Source: Bacteroidota bacterium (GTDB lineage: Bacteria > Bacteroidota > Bacteroidia > 2-12-FULL-35-15). Taken from it: a DNA stretch of 64,000 bases. The notes below the pieces were generated by a model. That model searched no databases, had not been told where the DNA came from, and saw nothing but the letters and a program-made list of their open reading frames with translations. Made by a program: the position numbers and the translations under genes. Below are positions 6,845 through 59,908 of the stretch, piece after piece (position 1 is the first letter of the stretch; each line of letters begins with the position of its first letter). Location: contig CANFRC010000009.1 in NCBI GenBank assembly GCA_947449315.1, forward strand, positions 71,157 to 135,156, written 5' to 3'.

Positions 6845-6863
6845 TATTTCACATACTGATAAA

Positions 6864-31988: not shown

Positions 31989-32015
31989 AAATAAAAATAA
32001 CAGATATTTAAAAAA

Positions 32016-33026: not shown

Positions 33027-33044
33027 TTCAATTGTCATTTAAAG

Positions 33045-37490: not shown

Positions 37491-37529
37491 TTCTTTCCTT
37501 TCATTACTTTTGTATGAAAGAACAAAAAA

Positions 37530-38027: not shown

Positions 38028-38279
38028 TACACGATTACCTAACCTTTATTTTTATTAACCGTTTAATTCTTAACCGTTTACAGTTCAATTAATTTCTTAA
38101 TTATTATTTGTATGTTAAAAATTCTTTGTATTATTGCAATGCGTTTCCGCTGTTATGTCTTCTCATAACAATTCACAATCTTACTTTTATCGAACAACTA
38201 AAAACACAAAACTTATATCTCATTACTACCCTTAACGATCATTCATTCGAAATGATTTTTTTAAATTAACACAAAAAAT

Positions 38280-39962: not shown

Positions 39963-40015
39963 TTTCTTAACTAGGCTCATGGTTAACAAACGATAATTTT
40001 TTTAGATTTTTTTAT

Positions 40016-40534: not shown

Positions 40535-40617
40535 GTTGAAAATTTGTTACATTTATTTTTTCCTCTCCTGAACAATCAGCCTTATTGATTGTTCAAGAAA
40601 AAAGACAATTAATCCCG

Positions 40618-43002: not shown

Positions 43003-43020
43003 ATGAATGGACGCCGCGTA

Positions 43021-44379
43021 TTATTTAATGACCTGATCTCCTAACTCTTTAAAATCAATACCATCAAAGTTGCCTGAGCTCATCATCAGTAAATTTTTAT
43101 TGTCATAATTCATTTTTAATAACTCTTGAATCAATTGATCTGAGTTTGTAATAACATGAATGTTGTTTCCTCCGAAGGCATTTTTCACTTGCTCTTCAGT
43201 GATGGGCTTTAATTTTTTATGCTCAATCGTATGTTGATTATAGTAAACAATTGCAACATCAGCCAGTTGCATCGAACTTTTATACTCTTTCAAAAACTCA
43301 TCGGTTAAACTACTGAATGTGTGTAACTCCATGCAGGCAACTAATTTTCGCTCAGGAAATTGCTTTTTAACAGCCTGAGTTGTGGCTTTTAGCTTGGAAG
43401 GTGAGTGAGCAAAATCTTTATACATGGCAGAAACATCATTTCTTTTTACTAATTCCAATCGTTTTGCAGCTCCTTTAAAACTTTGAATTGCCTCGTAAAA
43501 TTGGTCATCATTCAAACCAAGTTGGTTACATACAAGGCGGGCACCATTAATATTCATCAGATTATGATCACCAAAAACTAGCAATGGAATAGATGTCGTA
43601 TTTGTATTTATAAAAGTTGTACCATTTTCGATTTTATTTTCCGGAATTGCATACGGAAACTTCTTAATATCCTTTCTGGCATGCTCACACACTTTTTTTA
43701 CTTCCTTGTCTAATTGACAATAAACAAGGCTTCCACCCTCCTCGATTTGATCGACAAATAGTTTAAATTGTTCCACATAAAAATCGAAAGTTGGAAATAC
43801 ATTAATGTGATCCCAAGCTATTCCACTTAAAATAGCAATATTAGGTTTGTACAAATGAAACTTAGGACGTCTGTCGATCGGTGAAGATAAATACTCATCA
43901 CCTTCAATAATGGCAATTTTTGCTTCTTTTGTTAATTTCACCATGGTATCAAAACCTTCCAATTGAGCCCCTACTAAATAATCACAATCTATCGTATGAA
44001 AATTTAACACATGTAATATCATGGCAGTAATTGTTGTTTTACCATGGCTTCCACCAACAACAACACGGATCTTATCTTTAGTTTGCTCATAAATATATTC
44101 AGGATACGAATATATTTTCAATCCCAATTCCTGAGCTTTCAATAATTCCGGATTATCAATACGGGCATGCATACCCAGTATGACAGCATCTAATCCTGAA
44201 TGAATATTAGTGACATCCCAACCTTGTTTGGCGGGTAACAAATTTAATTTTGCTAAACGACTTTTAGAAGGTTCGAAAATTTCATCATCAGAGCCAGTTA
44301 CATGAAACCCTTTTTTATGCATGGCTATTGCCATATTGTGCATGGCACTACCACCAATTGCTATAAGATGTACGTTCAT
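43021..44379 (-). CDS. mpl: UDP-N-acetylmuramate:L-alanyl-gamma-D-glutamyl-meso-diaminopimelate ligase (Mur ligase family, peptidoglycan recycling)
   Basis: MNVHLIAIGGSAMHNMAIAMHKKGFHVTGSD… (MurC/Mpl N-terminus), GSHGKTTITAM P-loop. 452 aa. Confidence 0.8.
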   Translation of the reverse strand: MNVHLIAIGGSAMHNMAIAMHKKGFHVTGSDDEIFEPSKSRLAKLNLLPAKQGWDVTNIHSGLDAVILGMHARIDNPELLKAQELGLKIYSYPEYIYEQTKDKIRVVVGGSHGKTTITAMILHVLNFHTIDCDYLVGAQLEGFDTMVKLTKEAKIAIIEGDEYLSSPIDRRPKFHLYKPNIAILSGIAWDHINVFPTFDFYVEQFKLFVDQIEEGGSLVYCQLDKEVKKVCEHARKDIKKFPYAIPENKIENGTTFINTNTTSIPLLVFGDHNLMNINGARLVCNQLGLNDDQFYEAIQSFKGAAKRLELVKRNDVSAMYKDFAHSPSKLKATTQAVKKQFPERKLVACMELHTFSSLTDEFLKEYKSSMQLADVAIVYYNQHTIEHKKLKPITEEQVKNAFGGNNIHVITNSDQLIQELLKMNYDNKNLLMMSSGNFDGIDFKELGDQVIK

Positions 44380-44551
44380 TTTTATTTCAAATTATGATTA
44401 AAATATCATTCATTGACATTTTAAATTTGGAATAAACTTAGGAAATCAAACAACAAGAAGATGTAATTGCTTAAGAAGTTTTAAACACTCTGCTGTTATA
44501 TTATTTAATAAAGAAATAAATTTGAACCTAGCAGTTTCTAGGAAACAATAA

Positions 44552-45913
44552 CTACTTTTTCAACCTAGGATCCAAGGCATCTCTTAATCCATCTCCTAAT
44601 ATATTAAATACAGCAATAGTAACAAATAGTGCAATGCCAGGAAAAAACACCAACCACCAAGCACTGAACTGCTGCCAGCCTGAATTTAACAAAGAACCCC
44701 AAGTTACTGATGTTGGTGGCACACCTATCCCTAAAAATGACAAAGTAGATTCAATTAAAATTGCTGATGCTACACCAAATGCGATAGCGGTAAATGCTGG
44801 AGCCAAACCATTAGGAAGCGCATGCTTAAAGATGATCCGAAATTCTTTAAACCCCATAGCATGTGCCGCCTGAATATATTCTAGTTTTGATATCCTCAGA
44901 AATTCGGCTCTTGTCAGTCGCGCTATTGCAGTCCAGGATATAAGTCCAATTATCACGATCAAATTAACTATCGATTTTTCTTTTGTAATCGCGGAAAGAG
45001 AAATGATCAAAATCAACAATGGCATCGACAGAAGCATTTCGATCAACCTTGAAACAATTGAATCAACTGGAATAGTTACAATTTTGTTTAAGAAAGCTAT
45101 CTGGCCCACTAATTTGCCTATCCAATAAAACAAAAAAAGAATGATTGAGAAAATAAGCAAACTAAAAATCAACTCATAAAGAATTGAGAAACTAGAAATA
45201 CCAAAACTATCTACTATTGCATAAGACCGAACAGAAAAGGCATAAAAATAAGCTAGGAGAATGCCCAAAATAAATGTCCAGAAGGCCCCTCTTGAAGTTT
45301 GTAATTTGTGATCTCCAAAATAACCCGCCATAGCACCAAGTAAAATCCCTAAAATCGAAGCAATTCCTATCGATAAAATACCGATTGTTAAAGAAACCCT
45401 CGTCCCATTGATAAGCCCCGACAATACATCTTCACCACGTTTATTCGTTCCTAGCCAATGACGGAATTTTAATGGGATGTTTACAGACTGTCCTTCATTA
45501 TTTAAAAAAAATTGCTTTCCAGCAGGAGAAACATAATTCGCATTTTCAAAATCTGTTTTATTGGGTGCATATGGAATAGGCGCAAAAATAATTGTAGTAG
45601 CAGCTAAGTGCTTCCAATCTGCAATATCATATTGAAGCATTTCAATTGTACCATCTATATTTTTTATCTCACAATTAGTAGCAAGAGAAAAAGCAGGAAA
45701 CATATTAACCCCTTTATATTTACAATACAAAGGCTGATCTGTGGCAATAAAAGGAGAAACGATGGCTAGACCAATAAGGAAAAGTAAAATCCTGAAAGAA
45801 TAAAAAGCGAACTTATTTTTTCTGAATTGCGACCATGCATATTTTTTAAAACTGAAATCATTGGTAATTTTCATTTCAATTGATGTTTCCATATTTGCAG
45901 CCTCCTCTTTCAT
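44552..45913 (-). CDS. ABC transporter permease (OppC/DppC-like, peptide/nickel family)
   Basis: 6-TM permease with EAA-like loop (…AAHAMGFKEFRIIFKHALPN…). Confidence 0.8.
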   Translation of the reverse strand: MKEEAANMETSIEMKITNDFSFKKYAWSQFRKNKFAFYSFRILLFLIGLAIVSPFIATDQPLYCKYKGVNMFPAFSLATNCEIKNIDGTIEMLQYDIADWKHLAATTIIFAPIPYAPNKTDFENANYVSPAGKQFFLNNEGQSVNIPLKFRHWLGTNKRGEDVLSGLINGTRVSLTIGILSIGIASILGILLGAMAGYFGDHKLQTSRGAFWTFILGILLAYFYAFSVRSYAIVDSFGISSFSILYELIFSLLIFSIILFLFYWIGKLVGQIAFLNKIVTIPVDSIVSRLIEMLLSMPLLILIISLSAITKEKSIVNLIVIIGLISWTAIARLTRAEFLRISKLEYIQAAHAMGFKEFRIIFKHALPNGLAPAFTAIAFGVASAILIESTLSFLGIGVPPTSVTWGSLLNSGWQQFSAWWLVFFPGIALFVTIAVFNILGDGLRDALDPRLKK

Positions 45914-45918
45914 CTCAT

Positions 45919-47397
45919 TTATTTTTTAAAAGAAATTCGGGGATCAACAATAGCATATAAAATATCCGAGATCAAATAACCAAGCAAGGTTAAAAAACCC
46001 GATATAGTTAGTGCAGCTATAATTACAGGATAATTATTATTTTGAATGGCATAAACTGCTTCAGAGCCTATTCCAGGAATAGTAAATATGCTTTCTATAA
46101 TTATAGAACCGCCAATAGCTGCAGGAAAAACATTTGCAAAAACAGTGATGATGGGAAGCAGTGCATTTCGGAGAGCATGTTTCCAGATGACGGTATTCTC
46201 CGGCACCCCTTTCGCATAAGCTGTTCTGATATAATCCTGCTCTAAAACTTCAAGCATAGCACCTCTCATGATCCGTGAAAGAAAACCAAATGAACTATAG
46301 GTAAAACATATTAACGGTAGAATAATATAGGGAATAGAGGCCTTTATTTTTTGAAATAACGATGCACTTTCAGGGTATCCCAAAGCTGGTTTTACACCCG
46401 ATGCTGGAAATAAATGCAGCATATCTGGATTTGCAAATGTCATTAATAATAAGGTTGCCAACCAAAACGATGGCATTGAATAAAGCATAAAAAAAATAGC
46501 CGAAGTAGTTTTATCAAATCGGGAACCACGCTTTGCAGCAGCTTTTATACCGACGGGAATACTTATTAAATATGCCAGGATTACAGAAAGCATTGAAAAA
46601 AGTAGTGACCAGCCAATTTTTGAATAAATTACATCTGAGACAGGCTGTTTGGTAATATATGATGTCCCGAAATCACCATGAATCAAACCTTTTGAATAAT
46701 TCCCTCCATCACCAAAAAGCCAACGGTGGTATTGATTCTTATACCCATAAAAAATAATTTTCGGAATGTAATTTTTCCAGACTGTTGACGTGTTCTTTAT
46801 TTTATTATAATTTGCCTTTGAGGTTGAAAAAGTTATTTGAAGTTTTGATAAAAAAGGAAATAAAGAAAGAAGTTTTTCAATGTTAGAAATTTTTAAATCT
46901 ATTACTGAAGCAGTATAGGATGACTTTAAACTCAATGCTTCAAACCTAATCTGATTAAGCGTTTCCAAAATAGCACTTCTATCTACAAATCGAATTTCAT
47001 TAGTATCCAGAACAAATGCAGCTTGTTCCTTGTAAAAATTATTCAATGAAGCATAATATTCCTCTATCTCCTTCCAATTACCGTATTGATGAATCAAACG
47101 CCCAAGCGCTTCTCTTTCATTTTTATCATAGATCTTATAGAGCGTATCCGGAAACGAAAATGGAGAGAGTGAAAAATAAAAAATGGGAAGATCCAAACCC
47201 AATTTTTTACGCCATATTTTTTTTTGTTCTAATTGGTTTATTGCTTGAGCAGCGGTTTCTCCTCCATCCTGAGAAGCGACAACCATTCGTTCAACTGGAT
47301 CACCGGGAGCATTCACACTAATCATAAACCCTAGAAGAGTTATTGCAATTAGTGTAGGAATAAAAATTAATATTCGTTTGAAAATATATCTAAGCAT
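45919..47397 (-). CDS. ABC transporter permease (OppB/DppB-like) with long periplasmic insertion
   Basis: N-terminal TM, ~220-aa extracytoplasmic insertion, C-terminal 5 TM with EAA motif (TAYAKGVPENTVIWKHALRN). Confidence 0.8.
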   Translation of the reverse strand: MLRYIFKRILIFIPTLIAITLLGFMISVNAPGDPVERMVVASQDGGETAAQAINQLEQKKIWRKKLGLDLPIFYFSLSPFSFPDTLYKIYDKNEREALGRLIHQYGNWKEIEEYYASLNNFYKEQAAFVLDTNEIRFVDRSAILETLNQIRFEALSLKSSYTASVIDLKISNIEKLLSLFPFLSKLQITFSTSKANYNKIKNTSTVWKNYIPKIIFYGYKNQYHRWLFGDGGNYSKGLIHGDFGTSYITKQPVSDVIYSKIGWSLLFSMLSVILAYLISIPVGIKAAAKRGSRFDKTTSAIFFMLYSMPSFWLATLLLMTFANPDMLHLFPASGVKPALGYPESASLFQKIKASIPYIILPLICFTYSSFGFLSRIMRGAMLEVLEQDYIRTAYAKGVPENTVIWKHALRNALLPIITVFANVFPAAIGGSIIIESIFTIPGIGSEAVYAIQNNNYPVIIAALTISGFLTLLGYLISDILYAIVDPRISFKK

Positions 47398-47465
47398 ATT
47401 TCAGTTGATCAACAAAGGGAAATACAAACCAAATCCACTATCAAAATTATGAAAAGGACAAAAAA

Positions 47466-49370
47466 CTAATTTGCAGAGGTTGACATTTTCATGGAAGAAC
47501 CACTATTTAGCAAGCGTAAATTACTTAACCAAAGGCAAGGTCGTTCATAATACATTTCCTGATTTCCAAAACGCTTATGCATCACAATTCTTCTTACCCC
47601 TGCAAATAAAAAGATATATGGCTGCTCATCGTATACTATCGATTGGAATCTTTTTATCATAGGAATCGATTTTGCAGTATCGAGTGTGTGTTTTATTGAA
47701 TCTATTAATGCATCCGATTGAACAGAACCAAAACCCGTAAAATTAGATCCTTTTGAAACCCATGAAGACGTATGCCATAATTGGGTGTAATCTTCCGGAA
47801 AAACAGTACCACCCCAAGATGCAATAAACATGTCAAAATCATGATTACTTGCTTTCTCATTCAGTACAGAAGGATTTTCAGAATCTATATTTGCCTTCAC
47901 CCCTGCCTTATTCATTTGTTCTGAGACCATTTCGGCAAGATCTTTCCACTCTACTGAAGTAGCAAAAAATCCTAGATTAAATTCCATTTTCACTTTTTCT
48001 CCATCTATCATTTTATCGCGAATATTATCGCCATCCGTGTCTTTCCAACCAGAATCATCCAACAACTTCTTAGCGCCTTCCACGTCAAATGGAAGCAACT
48101 TCAATGCTGAATTGTATTCGGGTTTAAGCGGAGACACAGGTCCAACTATACGTCTGTTTTTACCTTTCTGGACAATCCTAATCACTTCATCAATCGGAAC
48201 AAGCAATGCCATTGCTCGTCTAACTTTTTTATCTGTGAATATTTTTTTATGTTTTATTCCATCAGGCTTCATGTTCATAGCTATGTATGCATAGTTATAA
48301 GTATCTATAAATCGAGAATTATAATTAGCATTAAAATTGGCATCTGCCTGAAGCTCCATTAATGTTTTTGAAGATAAAGAAGTTGACGCATCTAGTGTCT
48401 GTGCTTTAAATTCAAGCTTTTGAGAATTTGCATCTGTATTTAGTTTAAACAGTATTGTTTCCGGAAAAGCAGTTTCAAAAGCTGAATTACTGACATCAGA
48501 CCAATGATTTTTCTTTTTAACAAGAGTAATGCTTTGTCCGGCATCCCATTTTTCGAAACGATAAGGACCTGCTCCAACAATAAAATTTGGATCACGACTG
48601 TATTTTGCACTGTTAAAATCTGTAGCCCAGTCTATCAAATCTTTTTGCATTTCTGCATTAAAATTTTTATCCGAAAATTGCGCAATTGTATATTTGGAAA
48701 GCACGTTCTTTTTATCAAAAAAGGATCGCTGCATGATAGGAAATGTAGTCAGAAAAGAAATATTTTGAATGTATTTATCTTTCATGATCACTTTAAATTT
48801 AGTAGGATCGGTTTTATCGAATACAATATCAATCAGATTTTCTAAATAGGGTTTCGCATTTGGATTGTTTGTCAAAGGGCATTTATTGGCCTTAAAAGTA
48901 AAAAGAACATCTTCCATTGAAAGTGTACTGCCATCATCAAACTTAATATCATTGCGCAATTCGTAGGTATATTCCTTCCCGTTATCAGAAATGACAGGCA
49001 TCGACTTTACAGCAATGGGTCTCATTGTTAAAGATTGAAAATCAGTACCTATCAAAAACACTTGTGTATAGCCCATTATTTCAGCCCTGCAAGCGTTCAG
49101 GCCATTTGTAGGATGCATTTCATCTGGCTCACCCACAATATGATACACCATCACATTTTCGGATGACCATGAAGGCAAAAATGCCTGTGAATCTTCGATC
49201 TTAATGTACGTTGATGCATTCTGATTACTTTTCTCAACATGACCACTTGCTGAGTCATTCTTAACGGATTCGTTTGCACCGCACCCCAAAAAAAAGGCTA
49301 TAGAACAAACGAAAATGAAACAAGAAACTGCAGTTCTGATAGACATAAGGCGGTATTTAAAAAATTTCAA
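47466..49370 (-). CDS. ABC transporter substrate-binding lipoprotein, family 5 (peptide/nickel). Lipobox FFLGC suggests the start is at MSIRTAV.
   Basis: Signal plus lipobox (…AFFLGCGAN), SBP_bac_5-like length and composition. Immediately upstream of two Opp-like permeases. Confidence 0.75.
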   Translation of the reverse strand: MKFFKYRLMSIRTAVSCFIFVCSIAFFLGCGANESVKNDSASGHVEKSNQNASTYIKIEDSQAFLPSWSSENVMVYHIVGEPDEMHPTNGLNACRAEIMGYTQVFLIGTDFQSLTMRPIAVKSMPVISDNGKEYTYELRNDIKFDDGSTLSMEDVLFTFKANKCPLTNNPNAKPYLENLIDIVFDKTDPTKFKVIMKDKYIQNISFLTTFPIMQRSFFDKKNVLSKYTIAQFSDKNFNAEMQKDLIDWATDFNSAKYSRDPNFIVGAGPYRFEKWDAGQSITLVKKKNHWSDVSNSAFETAFPETILFKLNTDANSQKLEFKAQTLDASTSLSSKTLMELQADANFNANYNSRFIDTYNYAYIAMNMKPDGIKHKKIFTDKKVRRAMALLVPIDEVIRIVQKGKNRRIVGPVSPLKPEYNSALKLLPFDVEGAKKLLDDSGWKDTDGDNIRDKMIDGEKVKMEFNLGFFATSVEWKDLAEMVSEQMNKAGVKANIDSENPSVLNEKASNHDFDMFIASWGGTVFPEDYTQLWHTSSWVSKGSNFTGFGSVQSDALIDSIKHTLDTAKSIPMIKRFQSIVYDEQPYIFLFAGVRRIVMHKRFGNQEMYYERPCLWLSNLRLLNSGSSMKMSTSAN

Positions 49371-49523
49371 AATGTACTACAAATATACTATTCCCCGCTG
49401 ATTATTACATCAAAAACAGGTCGAGTTTCGAAATGCATCGATTTGCTAATTTTGGGAATATTTTACTTTTTGTTTTACAATAGCAAATCTTTTTCTACAT
49501 TTGCATTCCTTAAAAAAAGGCTT

Positions 49524-49613
49524 TGGAGAGATGCCTGAGTGGCCGAAAGGAACAGTTTGCTAAACTGTCGTACTGGGAAACCGGTACCGAGGGTTCGAAT
49601 CCCTCTCTCTCCG
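49524..49613 (+). tRNA. tRNA-Ser (anticodon GCT), long variable arm
   Basis: GGAGAGA…TCTCTCC acceptor stem, D-loop AGTGGCCGAA, anticodon stem-loop ACAGT-TTGCTAA-ACTGT, long extra arm, T-arm GGTTCGAATCC. Confidence 0.85.
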
Positions 49614-49628
49614 CTGAAAAATTACAAA

Positions 49629-49668
49629 AGATCTGCTCTGATTATCAGGGCAGATCTTTTTGTTTTTA
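49629..49668 (+). terminator. hairpin plus T-run after tRNA-Ser
   Basis: agatctgctctga-ttat-cagggcagatct followed by tttttgttttt. Confidence 0.4.
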
Positions 49669-49890
49669 GCAATGACTAACCCTTGAATTTATCTCACTAA
49701 TTTTTATTTTGGGGATCAATAGCAATAAATACCTGTGCATTGCTTTCATTGGTATTGTTTGCGATCAAACGTGAATGAGATAAATTATGGTAAATAGTCA
49801 ATAGGAATTATAAACTTTTTTATTAAAATCTTTGCAGAATAAAAAATAATGGTACATTTGCATCCGCATTTATAGTTCTTTATAGTAGTT

Positions 49891-49964
49891 CGGGGCGTAG
49901 CGTAGTTGGTTATCGCGCCTGGTTTGGGACCAGGAGGTCGCAAGTTCGAGTCTTGCCGCCCCGA
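49891..49964 (+). tRNA. tRNA-Pro (anticodon TGG)
   Basis: CGGGGCG…CGCCCCG acceptor stem, anticodon stem-loop CCTGG-TTTGGGA-CCAGG, T-arm GGTCGCAAGTTCGAGTCTTGCC. Confidence 0.85.
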
Positions 49965-50048
49965 CAAAACAAGTGGTTAATGGTTATTTGTTATATTTTA
50001 CTTATAACATATTATCGTTAACCATTTTTGTTAGTAGCCTTTTAAAAT

Positions 50049-50122
50049 GATCCCATAGCTCAGCTGGATAGAGCAACGGTTTTCTAAACCGTAGGCCTTT
50101 GGTTCGAATCCAAATGGGATCA
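50049..50122 (+). tRNA. tRNA-Arg (anticodon TCT)
   Basis: GATCCCA…TGGGATC acceptor stem, D-arm TAGCTCAGCTGGATAGAGCA, anticodon loop TTTCTAA, T-arm GGTTCGAATCC. Confidence 0.85.
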
Positions 50123-50180
50123 CTAAAGCATACTGATAATCAATTAGTTAGCTGTTTGTATTGACAATATTATTGACAAA

Positions 50181-50218
50181 AAAAGGGTTTCTGATTAATT
50201 TCTGAAACCCTTTTTTTG
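50181..50218. terminator. strong bidirectional hairpin terminator downstream of the tRNA cluster
   Basis: aaaaaaagggtttctga-ttaat-ttctgaaaccctttttttg: 11-bp stem flanked by an A7 and a T7 run. Confidence 0.5.
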
Positions 50219-50285
50219 TAATAAAAATAACTGATGAGAATCTATTCTGAGTAATCTAAAAGAAGAAACATAAGTAACATCCAAA

Positions 50286-50398
50286 ATGCTGATAAATCCA
50301 TATTATGTTTATGGTGGTTCAGGTGTTATCCTGATTTTAACAACAGCAGTTATTATTTTGATTTTTAAAAGGAAAAATAAGACCGATGAAGTCGCATA
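50286..50398 (+). CDS. putative 37-aa hydrophobic single-TM peptide (unlisted small ORF)
   Basis: ATG…TAG ORF MLINPYYVYGGSGVILILTTAVIILIFKRKNKTDEVA: hydrophobic core plus basic C-terminus. No RBS can be judged. Speculative. Confidence 0.2.
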
Positions 50399-50651
50399 GA
50401 ATGTTTGTAATCATCAATGCTAATCGCTGATCATCACTTTTCATCGTTTTTAATCGCATTTCAGCGATTAACATCGCTGTTCATCGCTGAGAAGCGCATC
50501 TCATTTCTCAAAAAACTACCCGCTATCGACTCATCATCAATTGAAAAAACTGCTCTTTTTTAGAGTTTTACAGGCTTTATTAAGTTACACAAATCTGTAA
50601 CGTAATAAACATTTATACATTTTACAATACATTGTAAAATGCTGAATTTAG

Positions 50652-50832
50652 TATAAAGAAGCTTTGCGTCATACCAATGTTGCTTTGATAAAAGTGTTGG
50701 AAGGCTTGAACAATAATGTGACTGGCGATTTCTTAGCGATGGATATCCGCACCTCGCTTCATCATCTGGGTGAGAACACCGGAGAAATTTCGAGTGACGA
50801 TCTATTAGCGATTTTTTTTAGTCGATTTTGTA
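50652..50832 (+). pseudogene. mnmE: 3'-terminal fragment (last ~60 codons) of tRNA-modification GTPase gene mnmE (trmE/thdF), truncated by upstream in-frame stops
   Basis: In-frame translation [63 protein letters not shown] matches the conserved MnmE C-terminus, including the terminal FCIGK. Stops (TGA, TAG) lie immediately 5'. No G-domain is present. Confidence 0.7.
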
Positions 50833-51035
50833 TCGGGAAGTAATTTTTTTGTTTTTGGAGCAGTCAATTTTTGTAAAAAAAAATAAGGCTGTCATGAGTT
50901 TGAACTGAAAAAAGCAGCAGTAAACGGGGGGCAACATGTTTATTTTATTGAAAAAGAGTTTCCAATTAAAAAATCATTGGGATGGCGGGAAAATATATGA
51001 AACATAAAAAATGAAAAAATCATAAAATGTTTACA

Positions 51036-51043
51036 TAAATTTG
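51036..51043 (+). promoter_or_regulatory. TAnnTTTG (-7) promoter element (TAAATTTG) about 30 nt upstream of the island's cysteine desulfurase gene
   Basis: Exact motif in a ~230-nt very AT-rich leader. Confidence 0.3.
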
Positions 51044-51072
51044 TATCTTACAAGAGATAAAAGCAAAAACTA

Positions 51073-52227
51073 GTGAATATATCTAAAGATTTAATTTATC
51101 TTGATAATAATTCGACAACAAAAGTTGATGATAGGGTTATTGATGCAATGATTCCAATCATGACAGAATGCTATGGAAATCCCTCTAGCTCTCACCCATT
51201 TGGAAAAGAAATTCATCAATTAATTATTGAAGCCAGAAAAAACGTTTCAAATCTAATTAGTTGCGAACCTAAAGAAATAATATTCACATCCGGAGCAACT
51301 GAAGCTATTAACTTAGCTTTAAAAGGAATTGCCCAATCCTCTCATTTCAATAGAAAAAAAATAGTAACTTTCTCAACGGAACACAAAGCCGTTTTAGATA
51401 CTTGTAAAATCCTTGAAAACCAAGGATTTGAAATTGTAATCCTTCCTGTAAATAATGATGGTACCGTTGACATAGCTTTATTATCCAATGTTGTCGATCA
51501 AGAAACACTTCTTGTTGCTGCAATGTTCGTAAATAACGAAACTGGAGTTATTCATGATATTAAAAAAATGGCTGAAATTACCCATAATATGGGAGCAATT
51601 TTCTTTTGTGATGGCACACAGGCTGTAGGAAAAATTAAAGTAGACATAAATGAACTCGATGTTGATATGCTATGCTTTTCAGGTCACAAGTTTCACGGAC
51701 CAAAAGGAATTGGAGCATTATATGTAAACAATTCTATAAAAAATAAAATTCAAGCACAACAAACTGGTGGTGGACAGGAATCCGGATTAAGAAGTGGAAC
51801 TTCCAATACTGGAGGAATTGTTGGTTTAGGTGAAGCATGCAAAATAGCTGTAATAGAAATAAAAGAAACTGAAGTCAAAGTCGCAAAGCTAAGAGACCAA
51901 TTAGAGTCTGAACTTTTACAAATTCCAGGGACATTTATTAATGGTAATATAAAAAATCGAATTTATAACACTACTAACATTTGCTTCCCTAAAAATGACG
52001 CAAATGTAATAATAGGAAGATTAAAGAAAATTTCTGTAAGTAATGGTTCTGCATGTACATCTTTAATTGTTGAACCATCACATGTTTTATCTGCGATGGG
52101 TTTAGATAATGATTTGGCCTTTGCCTCCCTTCGCTTCTCATTAAGTAGATACAACAATATAAATGAAGTAAAAAAAGTTGTTAAAGAATTAAGTAATATT
52201 CTGATTCCAAATTTAATTATAAATTAA
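51073..52227 (+). CDS. cysteine desulfurase (class V aminotransferase, IscS/NifS/DndA/SspA-like); GTG start
   Basis: LIYLDNNSTTKVDDRV (IscS N-terminus), PLP-lysine motif FSGHKFHGPKGIGALYV, catalytic Cys loop SNGSACTS. 384 aa. Confidence 0.85.
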   Translation: MNISKDLIYLDNNSTTKVDDRVIDAMIPIMTECYGNPSSSHPFGKEIHQLIIEARKNVSNLISCEPKEIIFTSGATEAINLALKGIAQSSHFNRKKIVTFSTEHKAVLDTCKILENQGFEIVILPVNNDGTVDIALLSNVVDQETLLVAAMFVNNETGVIHDIKKMAEITHNMGAIFFCDGTQAVGKIKVDINELDVDMLCFSGHKFHGPKGIGALYVNNSIKNKIQAQQTGGGQESGLRSGTSNTGGIVGLGEACKIAVIEIKETEVKVAKLRDQLESELLQIPGTFINGNIKNRIYNTTNICFPKNDANVIIGRLKKISVSNGSACTSLIVEPSHVLSAMGLDNDLAFASLRFSLSRYNNINEVKKVVKELSNILIPNLIIN

Positions 52228-52231
52228 AAAA

Positions 52232-52447
52232 ATGGAACAGACTCTAGCAAATACCACAAATTGGCTAAAAAGTAAAGAGGTTGAAAGTAAATTGAAAGTT
52301 TATAATAGTCATTTAATGCATTTAAGACTTGAAAGTAAATTAAGTTATACCAAAAACGGGAATTCATTTTTCTACAAAAAAAGTGATGTTAAGAAAATTA
52401 AAGCTATTTTTAAAAACTCAATAATTTCAAAGAGTAGAAATAAATAG
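52232..52447 (+). CDS. small DNA-binding protein, HTH_17 (excisionase/AlpA/MerR-like) candidate
   Basis: 71 aa. …LKSKEVESKLKVYNSHLMHLRLESKLSYTKNGNSFFYKKSDVKKI fits the helix-turn-helix … wing … F..DV pattern of HTH_17. It starts 4 nt after the desulfurase stop. Confidence 0.35.
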   Translation: MEQTLANTTNWLKSKEVESKLKVYNSHLMHLRLESKLSYTKNGNSFFYKKSDVKKIKAIFKNSIISKSRNK

Positions 52448-52534
52448 AGAAAATGAATTATAAAATTGAGCCTCAAAAAAGGAAAGTTGATCTTTTTAAG
52501 GAGCTTAACAGAGTTTTAGAAGAAATTGAAAATT

Positions 52535-54115
52535 ATGATAAATGATATTAAAGAATTAATTTGTGATTTACCTGATGGAAAAAAAAGAAATTATTTAGGT
52601 CAACTTTTCGTACAGTCGCTGAGTAATTATTACTCCAATTTTGGAGTTGATGAAGAAATTGATTTAGATGAACTTCTTGTTAGAAACATCAAAGAAATTA
52701 TTATTGAGGATGAATTATTGAAAGACTTAAAATTATTCGTTTCAAAAAAATTAGAAGAACTTTTTAATCTAAATTCTAATGATATAAGTGAACTTAGAAT
52801 TAAAGATCTTCGAGCAAAACTGATTTCACATTTTGAAATAAAATTTGAAATCGATCAAACAGCTGATAGAATATATGAGAATAATTTAATCTGTAAATTT
52901 CCACTTCATGATTTTCAAGATCGAATTAGGAGAAAAGTCATAAATTTAATTTTCGATAATCAGAAACGATTTTTGATTCATATGCCGACTGGTTCTGGTA
53001 AAACAAGAACCGCAGCAGAGGTTATTTTAGATTTTATTCGATTATCTTCAAGCAAATCCTTGTTAAATGATAAAATAAAAATTCTATGGATAGCGCAATC
53101 CAGCGAACTTTGTTATCAAGCTTATGAAACAGTAAAACTTATAATAGAAAATAAAGGAACTCAAAATATAAGTTTGGCAAATTATTATGGTAATCAAGAG
53201 TTGCCAAATGATATAGAAAACAAATCAGCTGTAATTTTCTGCGGTATTCAAAAATTACTTTTACATTATACAGATGATATTTGGAGAAATATAAAAAATA
53301 ATACTTATTTAGTTATCGTTGATGAAGCGCATAGATCGGTAGCAAATCAATGGGTACAAGCATTAGATTATTTTGTGTCAGATCAAAGCGTATATTTATT
53401 AGGATTAACTGCGACACCTGGACTGGGTACAGTTAATGAAGATAGAACATTTTTGCTATCTACTTATTACCAAAGTAATAAGATAACAATAACGGATTCA
53501 AATTATGAAGAAATACCAAATCCAATTAATGAGTTAGTAAAATTAAAATTTTTGGCTCAAATAAAACGAATTGATATTGATTCGAAAGTTGTTATTGAAA
53601 ATGGTGTAGACACCTCTGACGAAAATGAAATTAAATTTTCAAATAATACTTTAGATGAATTGACTGCGAATCAACAACGAAATGCTTCAATTATTAATAT
53701 AATAAAAGAAAATCATTTAAAGAAGAAAAAAATGCTGGTTTTCACTTGTGGGTTAGAGCATAATCGTATTTTAAAATCCATATTAACAGATTTGAATATA
53801 GTTTCAGAAACTATTGATCAAAGTACTACAAATAGAAATTCTATAATTGATAGATTTAAAGATAGCAATAGTGGTCTCGATATTTTACTAAATTTTGGCA
53901 TTTTAACTACTGGATTTGACGCTCCTAAAACCGATGTATGTATCATTGCTAGACCTATTTCTTCAATTGTAATGTATTCACAAATGGTTGGAAGAATATT
54001 GCGAGGGCCAAAAAATAATGGAAACGATGAAAATACACTCTACACTATAAAAGACAACCTTGGTCACGGTGACTATGATAATCTATTTAATTCATTTAAT
54101 AATTTTTATAAATAA
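52535..54115 (+). CDS. superfamily-2 DEAD/DEAH-type helicase (restriction Res-subunit-like) with ~130-aa N-terminal domain of unknown function. The ORF is open from TTG 52526.
   Basis: Motif I HMPTGSGKTRTAA, motif II LVIVDEAHRS, motif III LGLTATPG, motif VI YSQMVGRILRG. Confidence 0.8.
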   Translation: MINDIKELICDLPDGKKRNYLGQLFVQSLSNYYSNFGVDEEIDLDELLVRNIKEIIIEDELLKDLKLFVSKKLEELFNLNSNDISELRIKDLRAKLISHFEIKFEIDQTADRIYENNLICKFPLHDFQDRIRRKVINLIFDNQKRFLIHMPTGSGKTRTAAEVILDFIRLSSSKSLLNDKIKILWIAQSSELCYQAYETVKLIIENKGTQNISLANYYGNQELPNDIENKSAVIFCGIQKLLLHYTDDIWRNIKNNTYLVIVDEAHRSVANQWVQALDYFVSDQSVYLLGLTATPGLGTVNEDRTFLLSTYYQSNKITITDSNYEEIPNPINELVKLKFLAQIKRIDIDSKVVIENGVDTSDENEIKFSNNTLDELTANQQRNASIINIIKENHLKKKKMLVFTCGLEHNRILKSILTDLNIVSETIDQSTTNRNSIIDRFKDSNSGLDILLNFGILTTGFDAPKTDVCIIARPISSIVMYSQMVGRILRGPKNNGNDENTLYTIKDNLGHGDYDNLFNSFNNFYK

Positions 54116-54121
54116 TCAACT

Positions 54122-55918
54122 ATGAGTAATAAAAGACCACTAATGGGTACAGATAATATCCTTGGGTTACAAGATAACGGATATAAAAGTACTGTTTCTG
54201 CTATTTCTGAAATAATTGATAATAGTATTCAAGCACATGCAACAAATGTTGACATTGTTATTATTAGAAATACTACTCGAGAATCGGATGAAATTGACGA
54301 AATTATGATAATTGATGACGGAGATGGAATGGATCAAAATATTTTTGACAAGGCTCTTCAAATGAGCTCAGGAAGTAGATCAAAAGCAAAATCAGGCTTA
54401 GGTAAATATGGCCAAGGCTTACCTAATTCATCTATTTCTCAAACAAAAAGAGTCGAAGTTTATACCATGCAAAAGGGGAAAATACTTTATAATCATATTG
54501 ATTTAAATGAAATTTACGAAAGTCAACAACCCTATTTACCAGATACCGAAAAAAGAAATGAAATTGATATTCCTATTTTCAAATCTAAAAAATTAAAAGC
54601 ACCTGAAACTGGTACAATAGTAAGATGGGTTAATCCTAATAAAGTAAAACCTAAAACTGCTAGAACATTAGCAACACATATTGAACAAATAGCTGGTCGA
54701 ACATTCAGATATTTTATTAATGGCTTTAAAGACAATGATGGAAAGATTTATAAATGTAATATAAACATTTTAGTCTTTGATTTTAATGGTAAAAATTATG
54801 AACCTGATAATTTTATTACAAAGAAAAATATTCTACCATTTGACCCTATGTTTCTTATGCCAGCAACGCAAATGAATAAATTGTTTCCAGAGAGCAGTCA
54901 TCCAACTAGTAGTATATTTGATGAAAAAATCAAGAAAGAATTTAAAGTTATATACAATAATGAAAAAGTAAAAACAATTGTTGAAATTAAATTATCCTAT
55001 TGCAATAAAAAAGAACGTGATAGATATGGACGAAATGCCGGTGGTGAACCTTTTGGAAAAAAGTACTTGAATAGAAATTTGATTGGTACATCTGGATACA
55101 ATAATATTTCAATAATTCGCGCCGGAAGAGAAATTGATTACGGAAGTTTTGGTTTTATTTTAGATGCTTCTGAATCAACAAATAGATGGTGGTCTGCTGA
55201 AATTTTAGTTGAGCCAGTTATAGATTCTATTATTGGTATCGATAATAAAAAACAACAAGCTTCACAAATTCAATTTGTCGACAATCAGACATCTGAGGAT
55301 TATGACCATCATGAAATTATTCGATGGATTTCTACATTTCTTACGCAAAACATTAAAAGTGTTAAGACAATTATCGAATTGCAAAATGCGTCCTCTAATG
55401 GTACAACTGCTAAGGGGAAAGGAAAAGGACCAAAACTTCCTCCCGGGGGAGGAACTGAGCCAGGAAACTCAGGAAATCCAGGCGCTAATCCTGACGATGA
55501 TGAAATGAAAAAAGTTAAGAAGGAATTATTTGAATGGATAAAAGAAAGATACCCAAAACTGAAAGATGATGAAATATGGGAAATCGTAGATTACGCATTC
55601 AGTATAAAGGATTGTCATATTTTTATTAAATCAGATTTAGGAGATACACAGCTATACAGTTATAAGGTTTTTGGCACTAAAGTTTTGATAGAAATTAATT
55701 ATACTCATAGTTTTTATAAAAGATTTATTCAAGGGTTTGAAGAAGACCCAAGTCAAGAAAAATCATTACGTTCAATCAGATTATTGATAGGTGCCATGGT
55801 TAATGCAGAAATTGTGAATGGTACTGATGAAAAAGAAATACTTAAAGATAGACGGAATATTAAAAATAGGATGTCAGAATGTTTAGAGGATTATATCGAG
55901 GATTTATACGCAAGTTAA
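54122..55918 (+). CDS. GHKL-superfamily ATPase (HATPase_c; prokaryotic MORC / MutL-like) with long C-terminal extension
   Basis: Bergerat-fold boxes: N box EIIDNSIQAHA, G1 box IIDDGDGMD, G2 box GKYGQGL. 598 aa. It starts 7 nt after the helicase stop. Confidence 0.8.
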   Translation: MSNKRPLMGTDNILGLQDNGYKSTVSAISEIIDNSIQAHATNVDIVIIRNTTRESDEIDEIMIIDDGDGMDQNIFDKALQMSSGSRSKAKSGLGKYGQGLPNSSISQTKRVEVYTMQKGKILYNHIDLNEIYESQQPYLPDTEKRNEIDIPIFKSKKLKAPETGTIVRWVNPNKVKPKTARTLATHIEQIAGRTFRYFINGFKDNDGKIYKCNINILVFDFNGKNYEPDNFITKKNILPFDPMFLMPATQMNKLFPESSHPTSSIFDEKIKKEFKVIYNNEKVKTIVEIKLSYCNKKERDRYGRNAGGEPFGKKYLNRNLIGTSGYNNISIIRAGREIDYGSFGFILDASESTNRWWSAEILVEPVIDSIIGIDNKKQQASQIQFVDNQTSEDYDHHEIIRWISTFLTQNIKSVKTIIELQNASSNGTTAKGKGKGPKLPPGGGTEPGNSGNPGANPDDDEMKKVKKELFEWIKERYPKLKDDEIWEIVDYAFSIKDCHIFIKSDLGDTQLYSYKVFGTKVLIEINYTHSFYKRFIQGFEEDPSQEKSLRSIRLLIGAMVNAEIVNGTDEKEILKDRRNIKNRMSECLEDYIEDLYAS

Positions 55919-56220
55919 ATTAACTAATTAATATGATTTTCAAATCTGATTTGGCTTTTGATATTAAAAAAAAGTAAGAGCAGTAATTATTTAACTAACT
56001 TAAAAATCTTGCAGTAGAATATTATAATTTTATTTTGTAAAAATTATTTGGATTAATTCACGAATAAAAAATGTAATACTTATTAGATAACTGCTTTAAT
56101 TTATTAAAAACTGTATTTTCAGCAATTTCATCTTTTATTTCCTTTAGGAAACACTAGAGATAAATCATTTCTCACTATATATAGTGTAAAGTTATTATTA
56201 TTCACTAATGTTTTACAATT

Positions 56221-57183
56221 ATGCTATATAGAAGTGGAGAAAATTTAGAACATGGCGCAATTAATTTCGTAAATAATTGCGAAACAGTAACATTATATTC
56301 AGCATATCTTAAATTGGATGAATTAAAGAAAATAAATGAACATAAAAAAATAAAGCAAATTATTGTCAGATGGGAAATTGAAGATCTTTGTAGAAAAATT
56401 TCAGATATCGAACTATTTCTATACTGCAAAGAAAATAGTATTGTATTATACCGAAATACTCGCATTCACTTAAAAGCCTTTTGGGATAATAAATCAGATG
56501 TGTTTTTTGGTTCTGCAAATGTTACCAACAAAGGCCTTGGCGAAAACGGGAACTTCAATTTTGAATTAAATGGCGCATTAAAGGGAATAAGTTTTGCTGA
56601 CCAAACTTATTTCAATAAATTAATATTAGACAGCGAATATGTTACAGACGACCTTTATAATAAGTTATTGGACTTAATTGAAAGTGTTGTTTTGCCAACA
56701 TTTGATTTCCCAAAACTTCCAACTCCTCCACCAACAGTAGAATATTTTTTAATTAATCAGCTTCCAATGACAACGAGTCCTGAATTACTTTTTGAAATCT
56801 ATAGTGGACAGATGAAAAATGAAATAGAAATGAATTGTGCAGCACATGACTTAGAGTTGTATCGCATACCAAAAGGACTAACTAAAACTGTTTTTTTTGA
56901 CCAATTAAAACAAACATTCAACAATCATCCTTTTATATTGGAATTTAAAGTTACAATTAAAAATTCTGTCGATGAATTAAACCGAACTGATAGGAATGGA
57001 AGTATGACTTTTGGATCTGTTAAACGATGGTTTCAAGATAAAACTACTACTGTTCCCACACCCCGCTCATTTGAATTGAATGATTATGTAAATATATTAT
57101 ACGATTGGATCTGCCATTTCGATAATTGTTACAGCCATTCCATTCCAGGAGGGTACTCTCAGGTAATTAAGTATATTTGCTAA
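56221..57183 (+). CDS. phospholipase D-family nuclease, single HKD motif (Nuc/BfiI-like)
   Basis: HLKAFWDNKSDVFFGSANVTNKG matches HxK(x)3-4D(x)6GSxN. Only one copy is present, implying dimeric use as in Nuc. The C-terminal ~150 aa are unassigned. Confidence 0.65.
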   Translation: MLYRSGENLEHGAINFVNNCETVTLYSAYLKLDELKKINEHKKIKQIIVRWEIEDLCRKISDIELFLYCKENSIVLYRNTRIHLKAFWDNKSDVFFGSANVTNKGLGENGNFNFELNGALKGISFADQTYFNKLILDSEYVTDDLYNKLLDLIESVVLPTFDFPKLPTPPPTVEYFLINQLPMTTSPELLFEIYSGQMKNEIEMNCAAHDLELYRIPKGLTKTVFFDQLKQTFNNHPFILEFKVTIKNSVDELNRTDRNGSMTFGSVKRWFQDKTTTVPTPRSFELNDYVNILYDWICHFDNCYSHSIPGGYSQVIKYIC

Positions 57184-57262
57184 TGAAAATTTAGTATAAT
57201 AAATCAAAATGAACCTAATATAGTTACAAAATTGCGATTTACAAATATTTAAAAACATCAAC

Positions 57263-58837
57263 ATGAAAATTGAAGCTTTAAAAAATCAAATTGTTTCAGG
57301 AGGTAGAACATATCCGATATTCATTGCTTTTATAGAAGCGGAGTTAGTATTAAAATACTCTGTTGTTCCAAATTTTAGTAATGATGATCATGAAGAGGCA
57401 ATTGCGGTGAATATAAAAAGTAAACCTGTAAAAAAATGGCAGCGCCCTCTAATTCAATCGAAAGTTGATGAACTGATTAAAACGTTTAATAATACTGGGG
57501 AATTCATGCCAAATCCTGTTCTGTTATCAGAAAATCCACTGCGAACAAGTAAATCACAAGAAAAAATTAAGGCCTACCCTAAAATTATCGGAGGGCAAAC
57601 TAGTTCTGTTTGGGAAATAAGTTTACCTGAAGAAAAAGAGGTCTTGTGGATTATTGACGGACAGCACAGAATTACAGGTTTAGGAGATGTTGATTGTAAA
57701 CAAAATTCAAATATTGTTCCGGTAGTGCTTTTATTAAACCCTGATACTGTTTTCTATACCCCCCCTGACTTTGCAAAAATATTTGCGCAAGTTTCAACGA
57801 CAGCTTCAGAATTAAGACCACTTCATAAAGAATGGTTGCAGTATTCTTTTGAACTGGCAAAATACGAAGGGAAGCAGTGGCAGGATTCAATGTCTACTGT
57901 GGTTGAGCTATGTGCCCACACAGAATTTATAGACCGAGGCACCACCTACCCTAATCCATATTGGGACAAAATTGTTTTTAACGATGCCAATTTAGAGAAT
58001 AATATGCGTCTAAATTGTCAAGTATTCGCAGAAATAATTCACTCAGAATATTATAATAGAAAACCAGAATACAATCATTTTGCTCCGACTGAACTAGCTG
58101 TTCTTGTTGAAAAAGCGTTCTTTCAGCTTCGTCACACAATACCAAATCCTGACCTTTCGGTGTTTTTTGGAAGCGAATCTACGATTCGTCACGTTGTTTC
58201 AATTAAGGCATATATCAGAGGCATATTAACCTATATCCTAAAATATTGCGACCCTCAAGATTCAAGCAAAACACCTGATTTGAATGCATGGAAAAATGTA
58301 TATGAAACTTTATATTTTAACAAAACTGATTTTAATTGGGCTTTACATTCTATGACTGGTGAAGCGTGGTATTCAAAGTCGGAAATTTTGGCGAATGTCG
58401 TATTTAAAGAAGCTTTTAGATCTTTGACAATCCCTGATGGTGCCGTAGATTTAACTCATTGTATTTGTCTTGGAAATAATCAATTTATAGAACTGGAATT
58501 AACAAACAATGTAGGAGTTTCTACCACAAAAAAAATCACGAGTAACACAACAGTTATAAATGACCCGGGGAATATTTCAAATATAAAAATTGTAAACAAA
58601 TCATTTAATTGCGAATTAATCAGTATCGTTGACCAAAAAACTACCCATAATTATCCTCAAAAGTTCAATATGGATTATGCGCGAAAAAATAAAGGAAAAG
58701 GAATAGATGTTCCTTTTACAAAGCCTGCAACAAAAAGTAAACCCGCATACGATACAACAAAAAACTTCAATCTTGAAGTCAAAATAACACGCTATGGCGG
58801 GGGGACTGATACAATGGTAATTAAATTTCACATTTAA
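57263..58837 (+). CDS. DGQHR-domain protein (DndB-like family), 524 aa
   Basis: Diagnostic motif VLWIIDGQHRITGL. Upstream QRPLIQSKVDEL is the DndB-type region. It is ~150 aa longer than canonical DndB, with an extra C-terminal region. Confidence 0.8.
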   Translation: MKIEALKNQIVSGGRTYPIFIAFIEAELVLKYSVVPNFSNDDHEEAIAVNIKSKPVKKWQRPLIQSKVDELIKTFNNTGEFMPNPVLLSENPLRTSKSQEKIKAYPKIIGGQTSSVWEISLPEEKEVLWIIDGQHRITGLGDVDCKQNSNIVPVVLLLNPDTVFYTPPDFAKIFAQVSTTASELRPLHKEWLQYSFELAKYEGKQWQDSMSTVVELCAHTEFIDRGTTYPNPYWDKIVFNDANLENNMRLNCQVFAEIIHSEYYNRKPEYNHFAPTELAVLVEKAFFQLRHTIPNPDLSVFFGSESTIRHVVSIKAYIRGILTYILKYCDPQDSSKTPDLNAWKNVYETLYFNKTDFNWALHSMTGEAWYSKSEILANVVFKEAFRSLTIPDGAVDLTHCICLGNNQFIELELTNNVGVSTTKKITSNTTVINDPGNISNIKIVNKSFNCELISIVDQKTTHNYPQKFNMDYARKNKGKGIDVPFTKPATKSKPAYDTTKNFNLEVKITRYGGGTDTMVIKFHI

Positions 58838-58838
58838 A

Positions 58839-59381
58839 ATGATTTTTACTGAATTAAATAATTTCAGAATCGAAATTTCTAAAAAATACGTAAATCATCT
58901 TTCTGTGTCATTTATTGTTGGATGGGAAAAATGTAGAAAATCATTAGAAACCGAAAAAGATACATATGAATTAATTTTAAAAAAATTAGCACTACTGCAT
59001 CCCGAACACTACTACTTAATTTTAAAAACTGAAACCAGTAGGATTAATAGCAAAATTGAACTAATTCAAGGAAATAGATCCTTTCCGCAGATTGATGACA
59101 CCGAAAAATGTCAATCTGAAGAACTTTGGGGGTATATTTGTCCTTTTACAATAGAAAACAAGGTTCAAGATCATGAATTTCCATACTCCTTAGGAGGCCC
59201 TACAAATAAGGCATTTAATAGAAGAATACTTTGCAGATGGCATAATATGATAAAAGCTAACGACATCCATAATTATCCCTGGGAAAAACTATTTAATCAA
59301 TATGAATATTATATAAAAACCAACAGGGTGCACTGGGTTGATGAACAATTAAATAAAATCATAAAAGAATTCAATTTGTAA
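58839..59381 (+). CDS. HNH endonuclease
   Basis: CPFTIENKVQDHEFPYSLGGPTNKAFNRRILCRWHNMIK: Cys…D-H…N…C..H-N pattern of the HNH beta-beta-alpha-Me finger. The start is 2 nt after the DGQHR gene stop, so the two are translationally coupled. Confidence 0.6.
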   Translation: MIFTELNNFRIEISKKYVNHLSVSFIVGWEKCRKSLETEKDTYELILKKLALLHPEHYYLILKTETSRINSKIELIQGNRSFPQIDDTEKCQSEELWGYICPFTIENKVQDHEFPYSLGGPTNKAFNRRILCRWHNMIKANDIHNYPWEKLFNQYEYYIKTNRVHWVDEQLNKIIKEFNL

Positions 59382-59651
59382 ATAAGTAGAAATTAAAAAA
59401 TTCTACAAAGAACTCAACAATTTTTCTAGTTCATTTTTTAACTCTTTTTCCTTTTTTCTTATTGAAACATCTATTTCAATAGGGAAAGTATGGCTCATGT
59501 ACTTTTCAATGTCTCCAATTAAGCTACCTTGAATACCATTTCTCATCTTTTTTAAAAATTGAATTCAATCTTCTAAATTATTAAAAATAATCGAAGAGGA
59601 ATGTCTTACAATCTCAAAAAAAATTTAAAAACAGGATCAAAATCGGATTTT

Positions 59652-59908
59652 TCATCCACTAAAATATTTTTTTCCAAGCGCAGCAGCAAAGCCAACTTCA
59701 AGAGTTAAACCATAACCTGAAGGATTATCCTTTTGCAATCCCAAAGAGTATATTCAATTGGAGAAAGTAATTCGTGCTCTCTTGGATTAAAAAAAACAAC
59801 ATTACTTTTACCGACATTTTTAATAACTAGAGATTGCCAATCTATGATATTCATCCCACCTGAAAGAAATATTTTAGAGTCCATCATTTTGTGTATTAAA
59901 TAAAACAA
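59652..59908 (-). pseudogene. nucleoside 2-deoxyribosyltransferase-like small gene interrupted by a +1 frameshift near 59740-59755
   Basis: Frame A (59908-59705) encodes MMDSKIFLSGGMNIIDWQ…NVVFFNPREHE (N-terminal KI(Y/F)L(A/S)G(P/G) motif). Frame B (59753-59652) encodes …SGYGLTLEVGFAAALGKKYFSG*, the D/G..(T)..E.G.A.A.GK C-terminal signature of PF05014-like proteins. The frames overlap and differ by one nucleotide. Confidence 0.35.

Follow-up and report, generated by a model that had tools for sequence, protein, structure and literature searches.

A short piece of mnmE lies at the inner edge of a defense island in the window, by which we mean the whole 64,000-nt stretch of Bacteroidota DNA analyzed here. 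On balance, this relic is probably a dead, misplaced copy of 257 bp of the mnmE locus, a scar of DNA that would have been copied from a defense hotspot at mnmE to a second hotspot at a tRNA-Arg gene, with the cargo being swapped later. We infer both the mechanism of the copying and its direction. The relic is useful as a boundary marker, but it is an ordinary pseudogene scar at a defense-island hotspot and shows no new mechanism.

Identity, decay and probable source of the mnmE relic

The mnmE homology covers 50658-50843 on the forward strand, that is, 186 nt including the TAA stop codon, corresponding to MnmE codons 405-465. The frame is open over 50652-50843 (+), and direct reading of the sequence placed an in-frame TAG at 50649-50651, three codons before the homology starts. 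A first-pass annotation made from the sequence alone had given the relic as 50652-50832; the locus was right, but the exact extent was not. Pfam MnmE_helical matched with 43.3 bits (E 6e-11; cutoff 40.1) over profile positions 153-211 of 211, and in NCBIfam two MnmE equivalogs, aligned over their last ~58 positions, were the sole matches, leaving MnmE rather than another TrmE-like GTPase family as the only family assignment. When the full-length MnmE P0026 was compared with the window by tblastn, only residues 405-465 matched, at 50658-50840 (95% identity, E 1e-30). The domains that characterize a functional MnmE GTPase gene, the N-terminal TrmE_N and the Ras-like G domain, are lacking in the relic and were found nowhere in the 64-kb window by tblastn or Pfam. 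The initial description of a gene end reduced to its last codons, terminating in FCIGK, with a stop codon upstream and no G-domain, is confirmed.

In all comparisons with intact genes, the DNA homology has a sharp left edge at 50657|50658, without microhomology there. To the right of the stop codon, it continues into about 70 bp (50844-50914, +) that are found 3′ of intact mnmE in relatives. This stretch is 88% identical to the DNA immediately 3′ of intact mnmE in the metagenomic contig L062 and 84.5% identical to positions 2531-2601 of contig L057, where it lies just past a 5.6-kb cassette that sits at the stop codon of the intact gene. Because the mnmE 3′ flank continues the relic in this way, 50658-50914 is one continuous stretch of 257 bp from an mnmE locus without an insert, rather than a short att-core repeat. 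A repeat search found no further copy of the relic or of the 70-bp flank elsewhere in the window. An internally deleted duplicate of the full mnmE was rejected, as the 534-bp spacer ahead of the relic is unlike mnmE or its upstream DNA. A search for orphan relics elsewhere with the 61-aa relic protein gave only short proteins, and two short matches in long contigs turned out, when checked, to be frameshifted intact mnmE genes in long-read assemblies.

Scanning species-representative genomes with the relic returned 49 loci, all of them with intact mnmE of ~460-470 aa (best protein identity 89%) and none sharing another gene with the junction region of the window; neither a relic nor an intact gene of >90% identity was returned. 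No further relic alleles appeared when metagenomes were scanned with a relic 24-mer; the four contigs obtained (L054-L057) carry only intact mnmE genes, which match the relic at their 3′ ends with 94-95% DNA identity. Two of these contigs (L055 and L056) span the whole intact gene, and in the other two (L054 and L057) its 3′ end is seen at the edge of the locus. Among the 120 closest full-length MnmE proteins obtained with the lineage gene as query, the best match to the relic was the cluster P0026/P0153, which shares with it the motif DIRTSLHH, otherwise unseen among those 120 proteins. The mnmE genes of this cluster are ~98% identical across eight contigs, and their DNA is 94-95% identical to the relic; intact genes with extended identity to the fragment, the lack of which would have told against the first-pass annotation, thus exist. 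What ties the species carrying the relic to the P0026/P0153 lineage is circumstantial: this similarity, a related series of sample accessions and shared HNH cargo (see below).

We then compared the relic with the consensus of the eight intact alleles of this lineage. The window allele differs by 8 synonymous and 3 private amino-acid changes, namely I40N in GEITGE (giving GENTGE) and N52I and I53F in ANIFS (giving AIFFS). A second allele, in the conspecific contig L053, differs by 6 synonymous and 5 private amino-acid changes, including a G-to-E replacement in FCIGK (giving FCIEK). The eight intact alleles carry 2-7 synonymous changes each and no amino-acid change. Since both relic alleles have private amino-acid changes in conserved motifs, the relic is, judging from its sequence, a decayed pseudogene fragment without present function; FCIGK is kept in the window allele, yet the C-terminal helical segment as a whole did not show the pattern expected under purifying selection. 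Two private synonymous changes are common to both relic alleles, which points to a single founding event followed by independent decay of the two copies. We also considered whether a 59-codon ORF with a TTG start (50664-50843) might encode a functional small protein that arose from the C-terminus of MnmE. A frame of equal length is open in both alleles, but these together carry 8 private amino-acid changes at residues unchanged in the eight intact alleles, the ratio of synonymous to non-synonymous changes looks roughly neutral, and the gene-position collection searched held no exact entry for the ORF, making such a protein barely credible.

The genomic setting of intact mnmE differs from that of the relic. 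In 21 of 33 species-representative loci, and also in the P0026/P0153 lineage, mnmE has a divergent sucD gene within 1.5 kb on its upstream side; neither sucD nor the 5′ part of mnmE is present in the window. No tRNA gene was found near intact mnmE among the 33 relatives, except for a tRNA-Leu gene ~8 kb downstream in L032. The conserved sucD-mnmE adjacency indicates that the position of the relic behind tRNA-Arg is not the normal one. Decay in place, in which mnmE would once have stood downstream of tRNA-Arg, was rejected, in view of the 33 relatives with no such tRNA near mnmE and of the conserved sucD-mnmE arrangement. A related explanation is that the relic is what remains of the only mnmE in the genome, codons 1-404 having been lost and MnmE being absent or supplied by a foreign gene. 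No intact mnmE is tied to the same assembly, in keeping with this explanation, as is the lack of an intact gene of >90% identity in the species-representative scan. MnmE is nearly universal across bacteria, however, and the explanation would require sucD to have been lost together with 10 kb or more of the conserved genes upstream. Moreover, two decayed alleles 6% apart imply an old loss, yet samples with related accessions contain near-identical intact genes. We therefore consider loss of the only copy quite improbable.

Borders and cargo of the island behind tRNA-Arg

The relic lies 0.5-1.1 kb to the right of a cluster of three forward-strand tRNA genes, which had already been noticed from the sequence and proved real in both ARAGORN and Rfam: tRNA-Ser (GCT) at 49525-49614, the first gene of the cluster (Rfam tRNA, 57 bits), tRNA-Pro (TGG) at 49891-49965 and tRNA-Arg (TCT) at 50049-50123. 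The genes for tRNA-Ser and tRNA-Pro are identical in L053. A hairpin with a 16-bp stem followed by a T run is located at 49626-49660, directly 3′ of tRNA-Ser and within the cluster. To the left of the cluster, the core DNA encodes an oligopeptide-type ABC transporter (opp), a Mur ligase, a TonB-dependent receptor and rho. An operon of the aerotolerance type with BatA-BatD, von Willebrand-factor and TPR proteins (29019-37490) likewise belongs to the core.

For strain comparison, we used the conspecific contig L053 (ENA, 470 kb); the comparison covers the left flank only. Over the 12.6 kb from 37466 to 50128, up to tRNA-Arg, the two strains differ at a single position. Differences become frequent at 50129, six bases past the end of tRNA-Arg (50123), and 534 bp separate this tRNA end from the relic. 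From 50129 to 50914, there are 32 substitutions and 6 indels, with a divergence of 4-6%; the substitutions are spread over the 534-bp spacer (15, in addition to 3 indels), the 186-bp relic (11) and the 70-bp flank (6). Homology between the strains ends at ~50914. In place of sspA, L053 then has an HNH_4 gene, which L062 shows to be followed by genes for a helicase of the Schlafen type, a MazG-like protein and a PDDEXK protein. Divergence climbs steeply from 50129 on, so that the exchanged region has its outer boundary where tRNA-Arg ends. By this comparison, the outer border lies at 50123/50124 and the cargo border at ~50915, and the ~790 bp between them (50124-50914) are a shared but diverged left-end module of a hypervariable defense-island locus.

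These results bear out the proposal that the fragment borders an accessory island, given that L053 carries unrelated cargo past ~50914. As for the left boundary, which had been put at 50.2-51.0 kb, the cargo border falls inside this interval, whereas the outer border at 50124 lies ~80 bp to the left of it. The locus therefore shows one left flank followed by different defense cargo in two strains, an Ssp island in the window and an HNH/helicase cassette in L053, and its variable region starts at the 3′ end of a tRNA gene, as in tRNA-associated islands. With the relic as a marker, the limits of the defense island can be set at 50123/50124 on the outside and ~50915 at the cargo edge. The right end of the island is beyond the window edge, only the left flank being visible.

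The spacer between tRNA-Arg and the relic (50124-50657; 534 bp), which forms the left part of the ~790-bp module common to the two island variants, is non-coding as far as can be told: 13 stop codons interrupt the first translated frame, and the spacer is homologous neither to intact mnmE or its upstream DNA nor to any locus compared and matches no Rfam family. No integrase or integrase remnant, att repeat or element end was found in it. A hairpin with 28-nt arms (82% complementary) and a 6-nt loop, followed by a T run, was located at 50167-50228 (+) by repeat search and inspection of the sequence, and it is likely the terminator of the tRNA operon. A 37-aa ORF with a hydrophobic stretch (50286-50399, +) has no Pfam match and in L053 shifts frame after ~26 residues to give a different 47-aa product, and it is probably not a gene. 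Allowing up to 3 mismatches, we found no repeat of the tRNA-Arg 3′ end elsewhere in the window, which ends before the distal border of the island. The window also contains no homologue of the mnmE-associated integrase described below, in line with the earlier remark that no integrase is seen; the family searches covered ORFs beyond the first 34.8 kb, which are core.

Past the cargo border, the GC content falls from ~0.35 on the left to 0.26-0.32, and the variable cargo is an Ssp-type DNA phosphorothioation defense island that runs off the window (50915-64000). On the forward strand, it encodes an SspA/DndA-type cysteine desulfurase (51073-52227; PADLOC SspA, 495 bits; Pfam Aminotran_5), a ResIII/DEAD helicase resembling PbeA (52526-54115; Pfam, PADLOC), a GHKL (HATPase_c_3) ATPase (54122-55918; Pfam, NCBIfam, PADLOC), a 320-aa protein with a weak match to PLD-like nucleases (56221-57183; Pfam and, weakly, PADLOC) and a DGQHR-domain protein of the DndB/DpdB-like type (57263-58837; NCBIfam TIGR03187, E 7e-12). 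On the reverse strand, it encodes the PAPS-reductase-like SspD (59896-60996; PADLOC, 299 bits) and SspC (60996-64000; PADLOC, 1430 bits, from profile position 77). The sspC frame is open to the window edge, with the N-terminal ~73 residues outside; the full-length match P0160 has 1073 aa. SspA, SspC and SspD are thus found in the window, and the DUF4007 gene, which is not, adjoins sspC in the related island L065, where genes for GmrSD_N and NERD-helicase proteins are also present. We take DUF4007 in L065 to be the SspB domain and the GmrSD_N protein to represent the SspE domain; SspB would accordingly lie beyond the window end here.

The layout of the Ssp genes is unusual, with the helicase, the GHKL ATPase, the weakly matched PLD-like protein, the DGQHR protein and a 180-aa ORF standing between sspA and sspD/sspC. 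These intervening genes are possibly a phosphorothioation-dependent restriction module. The related Ssp island L065/L066 is mosaic (L065 is 82-85% identical in parts) and yielded no junction information; L065 has the GmrSD_N, NERD-helicase and DUF4007 genes instead. In many JGI records, homologues of SspC are labeled 'ribosomal protein S15P/S13E', apparently a misannotation that has been propagated. In contig L067, from a separate sample, the sequence is 100% identical to 50845-57170 of the window, so that the Ssp junction is reproducible. This Logan contig starts at the position equivalent to 50845, one to two bases past the stop codon of the relic (50841-50843). Such a start fits an assembly-graph branch at the shared mnmE end, although the T run at this point could also cause a break.

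Defense genes at the 3′ side of intact mnmE

We examined what lies behind mnmE when the gene is intact. In the P0026/P0153 loci, the DNA diverges directly past the mnmE stop codon into at least four contexts, most of which carry defense genes. In L055, L056, L060 and L061, and in the more divergent L054, a tyrosine integrase gene with the domains Arm-DNA-bind_5, Phage_int_SAM_5 and Phage_integrase follows ~200 bp 3′ on the same strand; in L061, the integrase gene is at 11601-12701 and an SNF2 helicase gene is found farther along. In L063 and L064, a 569-aa type IV restriction gene (DUF3427) stands on the opposite strand after the mnmE stop codon. L057 has the 5.6-kb cassette (2524-8190) mentioned above, which encodes a DUF3427 type IV restriction protein, a NUDIX protein, a Schlafen-type helicase and a MazG-like protein; it is inserted exactly at the mnmE stop codon, carries no integrase and is flanked by GGGAAATA(A/G) repeats of the gene end. 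In L062, ~70 bp are followed by an HNH island with genes for HNH_4, a Schlafen-type helicase, MazG, PDDEXK and a methylase. In the 1.58-Mb MAG contig L059, too, AbiEi/AbiEii and other nuclease genes (10657-12011) stand directly 3′ of mnmE, which is frameshifted there.

The association extends beyond this lineage. Integrases 37-52% identical to the L061 enzyme are encoded 149-611 bp past the mnmE stop codon, on the same strand, in 7 of 33 species-representative loci (L004, L005, L010, L036, L039, L045 and L048), which belong to several orders and include Fulvivirga and Salinimicrobium. A search for att repeats of integrase elements in seven relatives found no exact repeat of the mnmE end that reaches 13 bp within 10 kb downstream. 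In another MAG (L047, 8819-11902), a 104-bp direct repeat of the mnmE 3′ end (94% identity) lies 1.6 kb past the intact gene, a 60-aa ORF resembling an integrase N-terminus stands just before the repeat, and a 233-aa gene lies in between; this arrangement looks like a decayed element that targeted mnmE. In the full-text literature searched, we found no description of Bacteroidota tyrosine integrases directly 3′ of mnmE. This placement of the integrases, seen in several orders of Bacteroidota, has a parallel in Proteobacteria, where the SGI1 family targets trmE. The general part of the first-pass proposal, that the mnmE 3′ end is an attachment hotspot, therefore holds in this clade, as seen in the seven loci and in the lineage closest to the relic.

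Its specific part, that the junction in the window is itself an SGI1-type att site, is not supported. Under that explanation, an element would have entered the 3′ end of mnmE at the tRNA-Arg site and duplicated or displaced the fragment. It gains something from the use of mnmE 3′ ends as integrase targets in the clade, from the 104-bp repeat in L047, by which long 3′-end duplications do occur, and from the 70-bp flank, as a displaced original 3′ end would keep the gene's own downstream DNA. Against it, the 50 kb to the left consist of core DNA with no mnmE 5′ part, sucD or integrase, mnmE normally standing beside sucD. There is no intact, functional mnmE at the locus with an island in its last bases; a tyrosine integrase adjoins the junction beside intact mnmE in L054-L056 and L060-L061, and none does so in the window. 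The polarity is also wrong, the island being on the 3′ side of the relic where a displaced 3′ end predicts the 5′ side. The flanking repeat at a real mnmE site is only ~9-11 bp long (GGGAAATA, L057), in contrast to a relic that continues into 70 bp of flank, and the divergence between strains begins at tRNA-Arg, not at the relic. An att scar would further need an inversion or a recombination between two copies of the element, together with a deletion down to 534 bp, and we regard it as unlikely. In one multi-step form, a canonical attR would later have been moved by recombination between two such copies and then trimmed.

The two hotspots seem to share cargo. The DNA beside the L053 relic and that beside the intact mnmE of L062 are 97.7% identical, with a 607-bp identical run from the stop codon; identity is 95% in the relic and then 100% over the next 607 bp, a mosaic pattern, with the reservation that L062 is a Logan assembly (assumed k=31) whose mnmE/70-bp/HNH join could be chimeric across the shared 70 bp. 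The shared HNH cargo fits either a shared history or continuing exchange between both hotspots, L062 possibly being chimeric. This freshwater Bacteroidia lineage would thus have two defense hotspots, behind tRNA-Arg and immediately behind mnmE, that share a history.

The same observations bear on whether the relic and its 70-bp flank have been kept as a second attB, or homology arm, through which cassettes of the mnmE hotspot enter the tRNA-Arg locus. The mnmE end of the window relic, TGTATCGGGAAGTAA, is of the intact type: it agrees exactly with the consensus of the intact alleles and with L055, L056 and L062 among them. The near-identical HNH cargo after the L053 relic and after intact mnmE in L062, with its jump in identity, and the start of L067 just past the relic stop codon, as graph branching predicts, are both as expected of such a site. 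However, neither allele has an insert at the mnmE-end core, the cargo beginning ~70 bp farther on; a G>A change is present in the core of L053; the join in L062 may be chimeric; and no integrase or right-hand homology is known for the tRNA-Arg locus. We give a retained second site some weight, although the odds are clearly against it. A more far-reaching form of the idea, in which the relic with its flank is a transplanted left border of the mnmE hotspot that shuttles defense cassettes between the two hotspots, is doubtful as well; if true, it would explain why a near-identical HNH cassette is found behind the relic and behind intact mnmE.

Proposed origin and comparison with known systems

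In the copy-and-exchange origin that we favor, DNA from the defense hotspot at the mnmE 3′ end, a target of tyrosine integrases, would have been copied once to the tRNA-Arg locus. The copied piece would have started at mnmE codon 405 and run rightward, taking along the mnmE DNA at its left flank, and aberrant excision or illegitimate recombination of an island beside mnmE would be the likeliest route. The spacer at 50124-50657, in which neither an integrase nor an att repeat or element end was found, shows no direct trace of such copying. Cargo to the right of ~50915 would since have been exchanged between lineages, leaving the Ssp island here and the HNH/Schlafen-type-helicase cassette in the sister strain. 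The relic may meanwhile have drifted neutrally, and would now mark the inner edge of the zone in which cargo is swapped.

Compared with the SGI1 family, which occupies the 3′ end of trmE/mnmE in Gammaproteobacteria, the islands and integrases of this clade likewise lie directly past the mnmE stop codon, and L057 shows a short repeat of the gene end. The integrases here are of a Bacteroidota type (Arm-DNA-bind_5, Phage_int_SAM_5 and Phage_integrase). The fragment in the window differs in that it is not joined to mnmE, comprises 186 bp plus a flank, has the island on the wrong side and stands beside a tRNA gene. The locus resembles tRNA-associated islands in that the variable region starts within 6 bp of the tRNA-Arg 3′ end, with the tRNA reading into the island, but neither an integrase nor a repeat of the tRNA 3′ end was found in the 14 kb of it that the window covers. 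With regard to the cargo, the strong PADLOC scores for SspA, SspD and SspC agree with known Ssp systems (SspABCD with a restriction partner), from which the window departs in that sspA is set apart from sspD and sspC by the intervening genes named above. Core-flanked defense hotspots of E. coli and Pseudomonas aeruginosa hold different cargo at one site in conspecific strains (PMC10121019, PMC10250203). The two strains compared here match this pattern, carrying an Ssp island and an HNH/helicase cassette behind the same core flank, and they differ from it in having a diverged ~790-bp module with a gene relic between core and cargo.
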